Shown in pieces: positions 1 through 29,028 of a stretch of 29,028 bases of DNA. The DNA comes from Rhodospirillales bacterium. GTDB lineage: Bacteria; Pseudomonadota; Alphaproteobacteria; JAREAF01. Position 1 is the first letter of the stretch, and each line of letters opens with the position of its first letter. The notes beneath the pieces were generated by a model that searched no databases, had not been told where the DNA came from, and saw only the letters and a list, made by a program, of their open reading frames with translations. A program made the translations under genes and the position numbers. Where the stretch lies: assembly GCA_029240475.1 (NCBI GenBank), contig JAREAF010000001.1, positions 1-29,028 of the forward strand, read 5' to 3'.

Positions 1-963
1 CTCCTCGGAGAGGAACTCCCACCAGCGGGAGAGATAAACGCCGAGCTTGCCGAACCAGTCCAACGCGTTCGCGGGGTACATGCGGACCACGGCCGAGAGC
101 GGCAGCGATTTCGTCTCGCCCGTCACATCGGCCAGCAGGATTTGCCTCTGGGCATCCTCGGCGCGGAGCCGCCCGGCTTCGGCGGCGAGCCTTTCATGCT
201 CCTTCTGCAGCTCCGCGATCTCGGCGCCGAACTCCGCCTCGGCCGCCCGGTGCCGCTCGCTCGCCGCACCGGACTCAAGCGCGATGGCGCGCAGCTCCAA
301 GCGCCGCTCCTCGATCCGGCGGTTCACGCCGCCGATCTGGTCGCGCTCGATCTCCCGCAGCCTTTGCCAGCGGTCGCGCGCCGCCTCGTGCAGGCGGGCG
401 AGCTCGGCGTCGGAAAGCTCGGCGGGAGCGCGCGCTGCCCCGTTCACCGACAGGCCCTGGATGCGGCCGATGAAGGGTCCCCATTCGAGCCGCTCGATCA
501 GCACCAGGTCCGCCGGCCTGGACACCGCTTGGCGCTCGAAGCTGGAAACCCAGCGGAAATCCTCGTTGTAGAGGTCGTAATTGCCGATGCGATAGAGGGT
601 CCTCTCGGCCAATCCGCCGGCCGCCGCGATCGCGGCCTGCGCCTCGGGCGGCAGGACCGCCACTTGGCCCTCCTGCGGCCGGAAGCTCTCGGTGCGGCGC
701 GGCTCGCCGGCTATGACCGAGCCGTCGGCCAGCTGCACCAGCTCGATCGGCTTGGGCCAGAAGGCGAGGGCGCCGTTCCAGACCACCAGGATGAGGAATC
801 CCAGGATCATCAGGATGCCGAGCGCGAGCGCGCCGCCCAGCATCCACAGGGCCGGCTCGCCGCGCGCGGCGATGTCGGTCCCGGGCGTGCGGACGACGCC
901 GGCGTCGGCCCGCTCCCCCGCCTCGCCTCCGATCTCCGCGCGTTGGATGACTTCCACGGCCAT
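1..963 (-). CDS. pstA: Phosphate ABC transporter permease PstA, long N-terminal type (partial, continues beyond window start)
   Basis: Hand translation from ATG at 963 (GAGG RBS-like sequence upstream, 12 nt after the pstC stop): MAVEVIQRAE...EPALWMLGGALALGILMILGFLILVVWNGALAFWPKPI... open to base 1, ending DWFGKLGVYLSRWWEFLSEE. Follows pstC. Missing from the ORF track because its stop lies outside the window. Confidence 0.88.
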   Translation of the reverse strand, partial: MAVEVIQRAEIGGEAGERADAGVVRTPGTDIAARGEPALWMLGGALALGILMILGFLILVVWNGALAFWPKPIELVQLADGSVIAGEPRRTESFRPQEGQVAVLPPEAQAAIAAAGGLAERTLYRIGNYDLYNEDFRWVSSFERQAVSRPADLVLIERLEWGPFIGRIQGLSVNGAARAPAELSDAELARLHEAARDRWQRLREIERDQIGGVNRRIEERRLELRAIALESGAASERHRAAEAEFGAEIAELQKEHERLAAEAGRLRAEDAQRQILLADVTGETKSLPLSAVVRMYPANALDWFGKLGVYLSRWWEFLSEE

Positions 964-975
964 CGGCGTCCGCCT

Positions 976-3612
976 CTAAAGCTGTGCCGCGCGGCGGCGG
1001 AAGCGCAGCCGCACCAGCTCGGCGAGGGTGTTGATCACGAAGGTCATGACGAACAAGGTCAGCGCGGCGAGGAACAGCATGCGGTAGAGCGAGCCGCCGC
1101 GCACCGCCTCCGGCAGCTCGACCGCGATCGTCGCGCTCAAGGCCCTGAGGCCGTTGAAGAGGTTCCAGTCGATCAGCGGCGTGTTGCCGGCCGCCATCAC
1201 CACGATCATGGTCTCGCCGACCGCGCGGCCCATGCCGATCATCACCGCGGCGAAGACGCCGCTCATGGCGGTCGGCAGCACGATGGAGGTCGCCGTCTGC
1301 CAGGGCGTGGCGCCGCAGGCGAGACTCGCAGCCCGCAAATGCTCGGGCACCGCGTTCAGCGCATCCTCGGCGATCGTGTAGATGATCGGGATGACGGCAA
1401 AGCCCATCGCGAACCCGACCACCAGCGTGTTGCGCTGGACATAGGTGTCGAACACGCCGCCGCGCGGGTCGAGCCCGGTTCCGGCGAGCAGGCTGGCCAG
1501 CAGCCAGCTCACGATCGCTCCCAGCAGCAGGAATGCGGCCCAGCGGGCGAAGTCGATCACTCCGGCCGACGCGCCGCTGCGGCGCAGGAGCATGGCATAG
1601 GCCTCGCCGTAGAGGCGCCGAAAGAGCCAGCGCAATGCGAGCACCGAGACCGGCAGCAGGAGGACCGTGAGCATCGGCGCGCCGCTGCCGATGGCGCCAT
1701 TGACCCAGTCCTGGAAATCGCCGGCGAAGAACAGCGCCTCGAAACTCGGCGCCAGGGCGTAGGCGCCGGCGAGCGCGGCGCCGATGACGAGGAACGTGGT
1801 CGCGAATTTCGGCAAGCCACCCCAGCGCAGGGCGATAGCCTGCGGCATCATCTGCCAGAGATAGGCGGCGAGCAGCAGCGCGACCGGCACCAGGGCGAAG
1901 GCGAGGATCACGGCCGAGATCCAGCTCTCGACCACCGGCGCGATCACCAGCGCGGCCAGGAACCCCAGCACCACCGACGGCAGCGAGGCCATCAGCTCCA
2001 TCGTCGGCTTGACCACCGAGCGCACGCGCCGATGCACGAACTCGGAGGTGTAGATAGCCGCCAGCAGCGCGAGCGGGATGGCGAATAGCAGCGAATAGAC
2101 CGTCGCCTTGAGGGTGCCGAAGATGAGCGGCACCAGCGACAGCTTGGGCTCGAAGGCGTCGCTCCCGGAGGAGGACTGCCAAGTATAGCCGGGGCCGGGA
2201 TAGCCCTCGTACCAGACTTCGCCGAACATCGTGCCGAAGCTGGTCTCCGGATGCGGGATCGAGATCTGCCAGAATTGCGCGGCGCCGTTGCCGGCCACCG
2301 CCAGGACGGCGTTGTCGCGGGGCGCGAGCGCGATCGCGCTCCAGCTCGCCCCTCCTCCGCTCTGCGCGAGCTTCAGAACCGTCGCCTCCCTGGTCGCGTG
2401 GCGCACCCAGACCTCTCCGGAGGCATCGGCCGTGACGAACAGCTTGGAGCGCTCGCTGGCATCGAATGCCGTGACGGCGGCACCATGCTTTTCGAGGCTA
2501 TGGGCGCGCACCAGCGCGTAGCCGTCCTCGGTGCGCGCATTCGCCCGCGGCAGCCGGAAATAGATGTCGACCGAACCGTCCGACCCGCCGGCCACGATCG
2601 ACTGCTCGCCGATGAGGAAGCCGAGCGCCGTCAGCTCCACCCCGACGCCGAACAGCTTGCGCTGCTCGGCCATGACGGGCGCGTCGAAATTGCGGGTGTC
2701 GAACCGATAGAGCGTGCCGTCCGCGGCGGCGGCATAGACCTGGTCGGCGCCTTCGGTCACCAGCAACGAGCGGATCTCGGTTCCGGCCGGCAGGGGCGGC
2801 AAGGTCGAGACCGCGACCTCGGTCGTTTCCTCGCCGGTCAGCAGGTTGGTCGCGGACTCTCCGAGCCCGAGCCGCAGCACGCCGCTCGCATCGGCGCTGA
2901 CGAAAGCCTTGGTCGGGCGCTCCGCCGTACCGCCGAGACGATAGTCGAGCGCGATGATCGGCGCGGCCGCTCCCTCCTCCACCGGGGTCGGCTCCTCCAG
3001 GGTCGTCTCGACGGTCAATTTGCGGAGCTGGCCGGCGGAAATGAGCACGTATAAAGCGCCGTCCTTCAGATACTCGCGGTCGCTCAGAGGTTCCGCATCC
3101 GGCGGCAGCGCGCTGGCGGGAAGGGTCTCGGCGACGATCTTCATGGTTCCGAAGCGCACCGTGCCGTCCTCGAATCCGAACGCCAGGTCGCGCCCCGAGA
3201 GCGAGCGGGAGAAGGCCGTCGGCGCCAGGCCGCCGAAATCGAAGCCAGGACCCGGCACCGCCTTGCCCGTCGCGAGATGGACCAGAGTCGCGGTTCCGGC
3301 CGGGTGCAGCTCGACGGCGATGGTTCGGTAGTCGTCCATCACCGTCATCACCGCCCCGCCGCGCTTCGGCTGGGCGACGAGCTCTCCGAGTTGCGGCGCC
3401 GGAAGCCCATGAGCCTCGAGAGTCTTGCCGCCCGTGAAGAGCGGCGCGACCACCTGCACCAGATAGGCCATGATGCCGAAGACGGCGAGGATCACGAAGA
3501 TGCCGCCGATGCGGATGGCCCAATCGGCCGCGCGGTCGGCGACCAGCACCGAGCGGCGGGTCTTGCGGATGGGCCTCGGAGCGGCAGCGGGTTCGGGAGT
3601 TTCGGCAGACAT
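976..3612 (-). CDS. pstC: Phosphate ABC transporter permease PstC with a large extracytoplasmic beta-rich domain
   Basis: 878-aa ORF; C-terminal permease motifs SLVPLIFGTLKAT, KPTMELMASLPSVVLG, EAALxxG-like RAASLACGATPWQT and GRAVGETMIV; located between pstS and pstA. Confidence 0.92.
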   Translation of the reverse strand: MSAETPEPAAAPRPIRKTRRSVLVADRAADWAIRIGGIFVILAVFGIMAYLVQVVAPLFTGGKTLEAHGLPAPQLGELVAQPKRGGAVMTVMDDYRTIAVELHPAGTATLVHLATGKAVPGPGFDFGGLAPTAFSRSLSGRDLAFGFEDGTVRFGTMKIVAETLPASALPPDAEPLSDREYLKDGALYVLISAGQLRKLTVETTLEEPTPVEEGAAAPIIALDYRLGGTAERPTKAFVSADASGVLRLGLGESATNLLTGEETTEVAVSTLPPLPAGTEIRSLLVTEGADQVYAAAADGTLYRFDTRNFDAPVMAEQRKLFGVGVELTALGFLIGEQSIVAGGSDGSVDIYFRLPRANARTEDGYALVRAHSLEKHGAAVTAFDASERSKLFVTADASGEVWVRHATREATVLKLAQSGGGASWSAIALAPRDNAVLAVAGNGAAQFWQISIPHPETSFGTMFGEVWYEGYPGPGYTWQSSSGSDAFEPKLSLVPLIFGTLKATVYSLLFAIPLALLAAIYTSEFVHRRVRSVVKPTMELMASLPSVVLGFLAALVIAPVVESWISAVILAFALVPVALLLAAYLWQMMPQAIALRWGGLPKFATTFLVIGAALAGAYALAPSFEALFFAGDFQDWVNGAIGSGAPMLTVLLLPVSVLALRWLFRRLYGEAYAMLLRRSGASAGVIDFARWAAFLLLGAIVSWLLASLLAGTGLDPRGGVFDTYVQRNTLVVGFAMGFAVIPIIYTIAEDALNAVPEHLRAASLACGATPWQTATSIVLPTAMSGVFAAVMIGMGRAVGETMIVVMAAGNTPLIDWNLFNGLRALSATIAVELPEAVRGGSLYRMLFLAALTLFVMTFVINTLAELVRLRFRRRAAQL

Positions 3613-12225: not shown

Positions 12226-12251
12226 AACGCAGGTCGGAGCCCGTCGGTTCC
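12226..12251 (-). promoter_or_regulatory. EcfG (general stress sigma)-type promoter for wzc
   Basis: Perfect GGAAC-N17-CGTT on the minus strand ending 35 nt upstream of the wzc ATG. Confidence 0.75.
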
Positions 12252-14229: not shown

Positions 14230-14255
14230 GGAACATGGACGGATCAGCAAACGTT
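14230..14255 (+). promoter_or_regulatory. EcfG-type promoter upstream of a small ORF and manC
   Basis: Perfect GGAAC-N17-CGTT ending 20 nt before ATG 14276. Confidence 0.72.
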
Positions 14256-20500: not shown

Positions 20501-21304
20501 ATGAACGATCTCTCTCACGAAATCGCCCGACACCTGCCGTTCCTGCGCCGCTACGCGCGCGCCCTGACCGGGTCTCAGGAGCGGGGCGACCGTTACGTGC
20601 GGGTCTGCCTTGAGACCATCCTGGAGGAACCGGGGCGGATCGCGCCGGAAGAAGACCCCCGGCTCCAGCTGTACAGCGTTTTCCATGACGTATGGGCCGT
20701 GGTGCAATCGGTCGCTCCGGAGGATGAGGGCGAGGCCGGCGGTTCGGGCGGCGACAGTCTGCAGCAAGGCTTGGCGGCGTTGCCCGCCATCGAGCGGCAG
20801 GTGCTCCTGCTGATCTCGCTCGAGGGCTTCTCCTACGAGGAGACGGCGCAGATCCTGGGGCTCGAGCGCGACGAGGTGCGGCTGCTGCTGCACGCCGCGC
20901 AGGAGGAGATGCAGCGCCAGACGGCCGCTTCGGTGCTGATCATCGAAGACGAGCAGCTGATCGCCATGGACCTGGCGCGCATCGTCGAGGAGATGGGCCA
21001 CCGCTTGTGCGGCACCGCCGCGCGCCAGCAGGAGGCGATCGAGCTCGCCGAGCGGACCCGGCCCGGCCTGGTGCTGGCCGACATACAGCTGCAGAACGGC
21101 GACAACGGCATCCAGACCGTCCGCGAGATCCTGCGGCGGATCGACGCGCCCGTGATCTTCGTCACCGGCTTTCCCGAACGGCTCCTCACCGGCGAAGCGC
21201 TCGAGCCGGCCTTCGTCATCACCAAGCCATTCAACCCGCAGACCCTGAAGACGGCGATCGCGCAGGCGCTCTCGCTCTCGCGCGATCCGGCCCGACAGAG
21301 GTAG
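20501..21304 (+). CDS. phyR: PhyR anti-anti-sigma response regulator of the general stress response
   Basis: N-terminal sigma-like domain HLPFLRRYARALTGSQERGD...RQVLLLISLEGFS, C-terminal REC VLIIEDE...LVLADIQL...VIFVTGFPERLLTG...ITKPF. Confidence 0.95.
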   Translation: MNDLSHEIARHLPFLRRYARALTGSQERGDRYVRVCLETILEEPGRIAPEEDPRLQLYSVFHDVWAVVQSVAPEDEGEAGGSGGDSLQQGLAALPAIERQVLLLISLEGFSYEETAQILGLERDEVRLLLHAAQEEMQRQTAASVLIIEDEQLIAMDLARIVEEMGHRLCGTAARQQEAIELAERTRPGLVLADIQLQNGDNGIQTVREILRRIDAPVIFVTGFPERLLTGEALEPAFVITKPFNPQTLKTAIAQALSLSRDPARQR

Positions 21305-27447: not shown

Positions 27448-27603
27448 CCTTCGAGCCGCCGCCAGATCAACGACGATAGCAGTTCAGTTGTCGCGGCGCG
27501 ACGGGATGGCCCTGAAACCAATCTATTCTAGCTGAATATTTGCTGCTGTTTTTGAGTTGTTTGGCCTCTATTGGGGGACGGCAAATCAAGGCCCATGAAG
27601 GAC

Positions 27604-27628
27604 GGAACTCGGGACAGTTCATGGCGTT
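27604..27628 (+). promoter_or_regulatory. EcfG-type promoter for the GYGQ-repeat protein
   Basis: Perfect GGAAC-N16-CGTT ending 49 nt upstream of ATG 27678. Confidence 0.8.
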
Positions 27629-27677
27629 CGCAGCAAGAGGAATGCCCTGCGAAACCTTTGCAGAAAGGGTGAATTCG

Positions 27678-28949
27678 ATGGATCGGCGTGACGAGGAACG
27701 TCGCGGCTCCGAGCATAGCGGCTCCGAGCGTCAGCGGCACGGCGAGCACGGCTCTGGCCAGCACGGCCAGAGCCAGTACGGCCAGAGTCAGTACGGGCAG
27801 GGCCAGTCCGGCCAGAGCGGTTACGGCCAAGGCGGCCAGAGCGGCTACGGACAGCCCGGCTACGGCCAAGGCGGCCAGAGCGGATACGGCCAGTCCGGCT
27901 ACGGCCAGTCGGGCTATGGGCAGTCCGGCCAGAGCGGATACGGCCAGGGCGGATACGGCCAGGGCGGATACGGCCAGGGCGGATACGGTCAGGGCGGATA
28001 CGGCCAAGGCAGCTACGGGCAATCCGGCTATGGCCAGGGCCAGTCGGGCCATGGCCAGCATGGCGGGTACGGCCAGATGCACAGCCAGACCGGCTTTGGG
28101 CAGCAGAGCGGCGGGTATGGCCAGGGCGGCTATGGCCAGTCCGGGTATGGGCAGGGCGGCTATGGCGGCGGCTACGGCCAGGGCGGCTATGGCGGTCAAG
28201 GTCAGCAGGGCGGCGGCCAGTACGGCTATTACGGCCAGCCCGGCTGGAGCAGCCAGCAGGGCGGCGGCTTCGGCCAGCCCGGCTATGGCGGCTATGGCCA
28301 ATCCTACGGCCAGGGCACCGGCGGATATGGCGGCCAGTCCGGTTACGGCCAGGGCGGCTATGGCGGCCAGTCCGGTTATGGGCAGAGCGGCTACGGGCAG
28401 TCCGGCTATGGCGGCCACGGACAGCATGGCGGCGGCTACGGGCAGTCCGGCTATGGCGGGCAGTCCGGCTTCGGCCAGGGCGGCCAGTCCGGCGGCTGGG
28501 GCCAGAGTGGCTATGGCGGCCAAAGCGGTCAGTCGAGCTTCGGCCAGAGCGGTCACGGCGGCGGCTACGGCCAGTCGTCAGGCTGGTCCGGACGCAGCCA
28601 CCAGGACGAGGACTGGGATCCGGACTATCGCAGCTGGCGCGAGCAACAGATGCGCAGCCTCGATGAGGATTATCGGCGTTGGCGGTCGGAGCGTCAGCAG
28701 AAGTTCGGGAACGAATTCCAGTCCTGGCGCGAAAAGTTGAAGAGCATGTTCACCGGCGAGGACCAGTCCGGCAGCCAGTCCGGCAGCTCCAGCCAAGGAG
28801 CGGGCACGAGCGGTTACGGCGCGTCGGCGGGCTCGGGCTCGACGGGCTCCAGCACCGCAGCGGGCGGAACCAGCTCCACGGCCTCCAGCCGTCGCGGTTC
28901 GGAGTCGGAATCGGAGAGCTCGACCAGCAGGAGGCGTTCCTCGAGCTGA
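27678..28949 (+). CDS. Gly/Gln/Ser/Tyr-rich low-complexity (prion-like) protein, 423 aa, function unknown
   Basis: ATG 27678 with AAAGGG RBS-like sequence, own promoter motif and terminator; about 280 aa of [G/S]GYGQ repeats followed by a charged segment and a Ser/Gly tail. The 27540 start would lie upstream of the promoter motif. Confidence 0.85.
27750..28592 (+). repeat. Coding repeat region for [G/S]GYGQ units, including a near-perfect 15-bp tandem array at 27933-28007
   Basis: Degenerate GGC-GGA/C-TAC/T-GGC-CAG-type units throughout; five adjacent copies of (G/A)GCGGATACGGYCAR. Confidence 0.9.
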
Positions 28950-28978
28950 CCCCCCAGCTTAGGGAACGCGACTGCGTG

Positions 28979-29009
28979 AAGCCCCGTCCCGGACGGGGCT
29001 TCTCTTTTT
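28979..29009 (+). terminator. Rho-independent terminator after the GYGQ-repeat gene
   Basis: AAGCCCCGTC-CCG-GACGGGGCTT followed by CTCTTTTT. Confidence 0.88.
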
Positions 29010-29028
29010 GCTCCGCCTCGGCTCCGGG

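Follow-up and report, generated by a model that had tools for sequence, protein, structure and literature searches.

The low-complexity domains of FUS and hnRNPA1 carry evenly spaced aromatic stickers set among G/S/Q spacers, a grammar that gives rise to reversible phase separation and gelation. Known bacterial condensate scaffolds, such as RNase E, PopZ, SSB and Dps, work mainly through charge or folded oligomers. Here we analysed a 29,028-nt stretch of Rhodospirillales DNA (the window; contig JAREAF010000001.1), which is an entire contig (C120; 68% G+C) of an 82%-complete metagenome-assembled genome (MAG; G000) in 659 contigs. Near its end lies a gene, P0001, for a protein in which a long, uncharged, tyrosine-studded stretch of FUS-like composition precedes a conserved helix. 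We propose that P0001 is a cytoplasmic, disordered, EcfG-transcribed stress protein that would self-associate into a protective matrix. Its EcfG dependence, location, self-association and protective effect are what we infer from the evidence below, and we give this reading about an even chance of being correct. The coding sequence and its parts are as follows.

27678..28949, + strand: coding sequence of P0001, 423 amino acids (aa) plus the stop codon.
27678..27746, + strand: N-terminal charged cap, residues 1-23, 57% charged, with its first 13 residues identical in the ortholog described below.
27747..28592, + strand: uncharged [G/S]GYGQ low-complexity region, residues 24-305, with 45 aromatics and a predicted local distance difference test score (pLDDT) below 50.
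28614..28763, + strand: conserved family motif, residues 313-362, predicted as a single amphipathic aromatic/charged alpha-helix with pLDDT above 90.
28764..28946, + strand: Ser/Thr/Gly-rich C-terminal tail, residues 363-423, with a basic/Ser cluster at its end; the tails of family members are similar.

An initial annotation, made from the letters of the window, had described about 280 residues without D, E, K or R and about 38 Tyr, and direct counting bears it out. Residues 24-305 (282 aa) hold none of the four charged residues and are 93% G/Q/S/Y (G129, Q59, Y38, S35, H8, F4, W3, P3, T2, M1), and the whole protein contains 32 GYG units, 23 of them GYGQ, and 36 G[YFW]G units. The aromatics of the low-complexity region have a modal spacing of 5, occur about once per 5-6 residues and are far more evenly placed than in 5000 shuffles (patterning z = -6.35; coefficient of variation 0.38 vs 0.89). 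In a full-length AlphaFold2 (AF2) model, residues 21-306 scored below 50 in pLDDT and had no secondary structure, so that the disorder check proposed by the annotation came out as anticipated, with disorder predicted for the long stretch. The same model placed a helix at residues 315-359 and a model of a fragment placed it at residues 315-361, each with pLDDT above 90, whereas the remainder of the protein scored below 50; read from the sequence, the helix aromatics lie on one face at a spacing of 3-4. The highest Kyte-Doolittle hydropathy of any 19-residue segment in P0001 is -0.11, and there is thus no signal peptide, as the annotation had also stated, and no membrane helix. In the DNA, the repeats are inexact copies (65-92% matches) with a mixture of synonymous codons for Gly, Ser and Tyr, which argues against recent slippage and for an old array maintained at the protein level.

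Like the low-complexity domains (LCs) of FUS, TAF15 and EWS, the long stretch of P0001 is uncharged, consists mainly of S/Y/G/Q, repeats [G/S]Y[G/S], spaces its aromatic stickers evenly and is predicted to be disordered; it shares identical pentapeptide units with the FUS-LC sequence (bioRxiv 10.1101/2021.07.08.451535). P0001 differs from FUS in being bacterial, in the length of the domain (282 aa vs 214) and in having no RNA-recognition motif, Arg-Gly-Gly or zinc-finger domain (no Pfam domain was found). Searched against PDB sequences, the low-complexity region gave a best E of 0.054 (entry MGC84997 protein) and no detectable FUS homology. The FUS-like grammar of the initial annotation thus stands as a sticker-and-spacer pattern and does not extend to homology or RNA-binding modules; on these comparisons P0001 is an analogue of FUS, not a member of its family, and resembles it by convergence only. 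At 46% Gly and 12% Ser, the 282-aa stretch is presumably more glycine-rich and less serine-rich than FUS-LC. The oligopeptide repeats of Sup35 also resemble the Q/G/Y/S-rich composition of P0001, a likeness that would suit a heritable switch, prion or amyloid, such as that of Sup35 or Cb-Rho. We consider such a switch extremely improbable: the stretch has no Asn (0%), Gln makes up only 21% and Gly 46%, which disfavours stable cross-beta structure, and no functional domain is attached whose activity a switch would alter.

The strongest evidence here for selection on the low-complexity region comes from a pair of orthologs. A 1423-nt Joint Genome Institute (JGI) metagenome contig (Ga0308204_10017688; L102) encodes at 34-1383 (+) a full-length, 449-aa ortholog. 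Its first 13 residues are identical to those of P0001, identity is 86% in the segment matching residues 306-362, and the S/T/G tails resemble each other. The low-complexity region of this ortholog spans 307 aa and again contains zero D/E/K/R (G121, Q70, S46, Y31, H18, A8, F7, W3); its aromatics are evenly spaced too (z = -4.6), and its repeats are rearranged relative to P0001, with many indels. Composition, length and absence of charge have thus been kept despite sequence drift, which argues that the low-complexity region is itself selected, and that what selection acts on is its composition. The charge-free region of the ortholog is richer in His (18) and Ala (8) than that of P0001.

The stretch was present in soil metagenomes of at least eight studies, an occurrence that identifies the source organism as a soil dweller. 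In two runs from different studies, short contigs tile the gene with 0-5 mismatches, and two further studies hold 90-97% variants, including one in-frame 33-nt repeat difference. None of the listed contigs of other runs covers the whole repeat array. Upstream of P0001 lies a divergent flavin mononucleotide (FMN) reductase gene, and in another study a single contig runs from a diverged FMN reductase start into the start of the P0001 gene. An assembly chimera was ruled out by the independent contig with the full architecture together with this contig, which connects the FMN reductase end to the gene.

As proposed by the initial annotation, the non-repetitive C-terminal segment was used to look for homologs. 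At E<=0.001, an exhaustive phmmer search with residues 296-372 returned 629 matches (best near 1e-12), each representing a 50%-identity cluster and none of them characterised. The motif they share is ~45 aa long (DPDY-x2-WR, LD-x-DY-x2-WR, KF-x3-F-x2-WR), and every invariant column of the family alignment (Y, W, R, D, Y, F, F, R) is present in P0001, which is 43-54% identical to members over a 51-aa core and up to 70% identical to fragments; the family profile matched the window at E = 2.3e-23. The family has no Pfam or NCBIfam model, and its members are named 'hypothetical protein' wherever the source gives a name. P0001 itself had no match in Pfam or NCBIfam at E<=1, and an exact-protein look-up returned no record. 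PDB sequence searches with the helix gave nothing meaningful, and no study of the helix family was found in the literature on SWFGD, DUF2171, GYGQ, bacterial FUS-like proteins and the EcfG regulon. The view that P0001 has no known bacterial relative therefore needs amending: the C-terminal helix places it in a large family, whose members are uncharacterised.

Typical members are 200-300 aa long, have no signal peptides and are mostly encoded by stand-alone genes. They share with P0001 the order of parts, namely a G/Q/Y-rich region, then the helix, then an S/T/G/Q tail, and differ in that the first region is highly charged. The median charged fraction of members is 0.30, and the longest charge-free run in the 150 best of them is 52 aa; P0001 has 36 G[YFW]G units and stays free of charge for 282 residues. 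Judged by this shared motif and layout, P0001 is an extreme variant of a widespread uncharacterised family. A locus search with patterns from a 12-sequence core, which favoured Burkholderiales, confirmed 214 loci, mostly in that order (Variovorax, Ramlibacter, Pseudorhodoferax, Acidovorax, Rubrivivax, Pelomonas and others); in Alphaproteobacteria the family is sporadic. Among its Burkholderiales loci (L003-L082), the family gene often adjoins rpoN on the opposite strand (18 loci) or a DUF4142-like gene on the same strand (16 loci), which may be lineage synteny. Genomes of one alphaproteobacterial genus (g42; loci L084, L085, L089 and L090) each encode two paralogs with a duplicated helix motif of consecutive DY..WR sets, and each of these paralogs is preceded by GGAAC-N16/17-NGTT.

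Conservation among the 629 representatives is confined to the helix, and the region before it varies widely in length and composition, with repeat-number variants in related strains. These observations would fit an account in which the helix is the functional unit, binding the ribosome, nucleic acid, a membrane surface or a stress protein, and the low-complexity region is a drifting expansion. The same type of helix also occurs between other modules in SWFGD/DUF2171 proteins. We nonetheless regard this account as plausible but quite unlikely. Drift should add charged and aliphatic residues, and none has appeared in the 282 or the 307 residues despite substitutions and indels; the mixture of synonymous codons likewise indicates that the repeats are old and have been preserved as protein.

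In Sphingomonadaceae, SWFGD/DUF2171 proteins (NF033157, PF09939) have a helix of related sequence (DY..WR...LDRDYDEYR...KFE.EF..) that separates the SWFGD motif from the DUF2171 domain, and short GYGQ repeats are often present as well. One such protein, P0246, matches both models, whereas P0001 has neither the motif nor the domain (no match at E<=1). The plasmid collection yielded a single match, a Sphingomonas DUF2171 protein, and an atlas search with P0001 pointed to SWFGD, BON and KGG stress proteins. Hydrophilins and LEA-like proteins (E. coli YciG/KGG, Acinetobacter DtpA/DtpB) and BON/OsmY-like proteins are comparable in being small, stress-induced, Gly-rich, hydrophilic and disordered. 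P0001 has no KGG, CsbD or BON domain, and those proteins are charged, whereas P0001 carries a long neutral aromatic-rich domain. The hydrophilin criteria of Garay-Arroyo et al. 2000 are said to be Gly above 6% and a hydrophilicity index above 1, and P0001 as a whole falls within them, at 35% Gly and a mean Kyte-Doolittle hydropathy of -1.43. It can be placed in the wider group of hydrophilin-like, disordered stress proteins of bacteria. Bacterial hydrophilins have been discussed elsewhere (PMC10534466).

A composition of this hydrophilin type would suit a soluble molecular shield, that is, a dispersed hydrated spacer or vitrification aid like LEA or DtpA/DtpB that forms no separate phase. Very high Gly favours solubility and flexibility, and other family members, ~30% charged and not FUS-like, share the helix, which implies that the family function needs no uncharged domain. 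Even so, we regard a plain shield as plausible but unlikely: two diverged orthologs exclude charge over ~300 aa and keep an aromatic every ~5-6 residues, which a shield does not need, and a charge-free pattern of evenly spaced aromatics is the grammar known to drive self-association.

The initial annotation further named no characterised bacterial protein of this architecture; taken as a claim that bacteria have nothing comparable, it was contradicted, since shorter G/Y/Q segments recur in bacterial stress and membrane proteins. In a word search with the whole protein, G/Y/Q(P) segments of 50-154 aa without charged residues turned up in a range of proteins: BON/OsmY-like proteins (P0253, P0229), DnaJ (P0208), SWFGD/DUF2171 proteins (P0246), RDD and DUF4870 membrane proteins, zinc-ribbon proteins and S1-C proteases. 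None of the matches of this search comes near 282 aa at 93% G/Q/S/Y. Going by these matches, G/Y/Q low complexity is a recurrent theme in bacteria and P0001 is its extreme. The two BON proteins have no signal peptides, and their DEW-R-rich N-terminus leads into charge-free GYGQ runs of 51-65 aa; in the DnaJ protein GYGQ repeats take the place of the usual G/F region. Among the matches of the analysis as a whole, a 2137-aa repetitive protein (P0002) was judged spurious. In the same MAG, a GYGQ-tail fragment stands at a contig start (C551:1-303, +), where the assembly broke inside the repeat.

In two genomes of the same genus, the slot divergent from the FMN reductase gene is filled by another gene (L100 146-1102 (-) in G002; L101 3053-3874 (-) in G001). 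In its product, a DUF2383/PA2169 four-helix bundle is joined to a membrane helix and to a tail rich in G/Y/Q(S); P0001 lacks the DUF2383 part, and the sister-slot protein lacks the WR helix. The gene occupies the same chromosomal position as P0001 and has GGAAC-N16-TGTT upstream. Its tail is ~70% similar to the P0001 repeats in DNA, through either common descent or shared codons. This arrangement suggests a conserved stress-promoter slot whose gene was replaced or whose modules were shuffled.

That the G/Y/Q tail of the sister genomes follows a membrane helix also bears on the view of P0001 as a structural protein of the envelope or the cell exterior, part of a matrix like silk or resilin or of a cyst coat, perhaps dityrosine-cross-linked, and acting with the exopolysaccharide genes of the window. 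The window is indeed rich in polysaccharide genes (Wzc, Wzy_C, ManC, a glycosyltransferase and a beta-barrel porin). G/Y-rich regions occur in outer membrane protein (OMP)-like and secreted proteins of the same genome, and GGYGQ-type units are known in spidroins. In the same MAG, C71:35-1150 (+) encodes a (GGY)n segment on an OMP-like barrel, and C124:4110-6548 (-) encodes an 813-aa secreted Q/G/Y-rich protein. P0001, however, has no signal peptide, lipobox or hydrophobic segment, and its N-terminus is highly charged. No secretion gene is adjacent and the family members have no signal peptides, and we judge an extracellular role very unlikely.

The expression signals of the gene and the nearest regulatory gene are the following.

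27604..27628, + strand: EcfG-type promoter GGAAC-N16-CGTT, with the -35 element at 27604-27608 and the -10 element at 27625-27628; the motif is enriched genome-wide in noncoding DNA.
27664..27671, + strand: ribosome-binding site AAAGGGTG, 7-14 nt before the ATG, read from the sequence.
28978..29010, + strand: intrinsic terminator, an 11-bp GC-rich hairpin (28978-29002) followed by a T-run.
20501..21304, + strand: phyR, anti-anti-sigma response regulator of the general stress response, with PhyR_sigma2, PhyR_sigma-like and Response_reg domains.

The promoter, ribosome-binding site and hairpin terminator on which the initial annotation had based a monocistronic unit were each found, the promoter at the positions it had given. 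The perfect promoter motif ends 49 nt before the ATG, and the contig ends (29028) 79 nt past the stop codon, just beyond the terminator. The P0001 frame has a third-position G+C (GC3) of 0.83, typical for real genes on a 68% GC contig, and its C-terminal part has many homologs in frame; on both grounds the frame is taken to be correct. Two overlapping open reading frames (ORFs) were set aside as shadow ORFs, one at 27688-28740 (+) with a GC3 of 0.66 vs 0.83 and one at 27528-28556 (-), the P0001 frame having the highest GC3.

The promoter itself had been assigned to EcfG, and the perfect motif, phyR on the same contig, enrichment of the motif in noncoding DNA and EcfG-like motifs before alphaproteobacterial homologs favour that assignment and make the promoter plausibly functional. 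The window contains three perfect GGAAC-N16/17-CGTT motifs against 0.22 expected. Besides the one before P0001, perfect GGAAC-N17-CGTT motifs stand at 12226-12251 (-), upstream of a Wzc-like gene, and at 14230-14255 (+), before a small ORF preceding manC. Across the genome, 22 perfect motifs are noncoding, against 7-11 for seven control patterns, and others precede genes for a PRC-barrel protein, a Gly-zipper lipoprotein and GalU, which are typical stress-regulon types. Two candidate extracytoplasmic function (ECF) sigma factors, on contigs C493 and C432, resemble the PhyR sigma-like domain.

Upstream motifs of alphaproteobacterial homologs were examined in three genomes of two genera. GGAAC-N16-GGTT stands directly upstream of two orthologs, GGAAC-N16/17-AGTT directly upstream of two paralogs and GGAAC-N17-CGTC directly upstream of an SWFGD protein gene. 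The EcfG motif derived experimentally in Sphingomonas melonis is GGAAC-N17-20-GTT, commonly 27-54 nt from the start codon of measured targets (PMC6599016). The -10 variants of the homologs that end in GTT match this pattern, and the 49-nt distance in P0001 is similar to that of the measured targets. Transcription of P0001 is, on this evidence, quite probably EcfG-dependent.

For the proposed mechanism we envisage the following course. Under stress, phosphorylated PhyR would bind NepR and free EcfG, which would then use the GGAAC/CGTT promoter. Repeat expansion in this lineage would have produced the ~280-300 uncharged residues with a Tyr, Phe or Trp every ~5-6. As the protein accumulated and the cytoplasm lost water, the aromatic stickers in their G/S/Q spacers would self-associate independently of salt, since in a stretch of 282 neutral residues any such association should be indifferent to salt and depend instead on concentration or water loss, as in a drying soil cell. 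The outcome would be a reversible condensate or gel, a hydrophilin-like protective matrix. The conserved helix, ~45 residues rich in W/Y/F/R/D, may supply a family-specific contact, with a partner or in self-association, and the charged N-terminal cap and Ser-rich tail may keep the dilute protein soluble. In a more specific form of the proposal, which we put forward tentatively and think somewhat unlikely as a whole, the protein would be an EcfG-induced Tyr-sticker scaffold that demixes or gels on dehydration and recruits or anchors clients through the WR helix.

Several observations weigh against a self-associating, EcfG-driven stress protein. The helix family is patchy in the class, with members in only 5 of 400 other, evenly drawn genomes, and was not found in two genomes of the same genus (94% and 75% complete). 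Being rare in the class and not found in those genomes, it is not a core member of the stress regulon. In the phylum, the helix motif occurred in 6 of 400 sampled genomes, concentrated in two families. The even aromatic spacing is an automatic outcome of a tandem-repeat origin, and with 46% Gly, more than in FUS-LC, the protein could simply stay soluble and flexible. A homodimer prediction for the helix scored 0.02, a result that the predictor rates as uninformative. On the regulatory side, the NepR Pfam model, a short one, found nothing in the 82%-complete MAG. Counting coding and noncoding occurrences together, the perfect motif occurs 38 times genome-wide, not above control patterns (23-39). 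In soil metatranscriptomes no more than 7-17% of the words sampled were present, and relatives may be their source.

P0001 offers a compact model for studying such a protein, with 423 aa, one helix and no other domain. Together with its charge-free ortholog it provides a natural experiment in which selection on composition can be told from selection on sequence. The large helix family, found in many soil and rhizosphere Burkholderiales, merits a name and a functional test. If P0001 does self-associate as proposed, the prion-like grammar of eukaryotes would have arisen independently in bacteria for stress survival. Should the dehydration scaffold prove true as well, soil bacteria would have a purpose-built, gene-encoded means of vitrifying or condensing the cytoplasm and so of surviving desiccation, and the wider helix family would represent milder versions of the same device.

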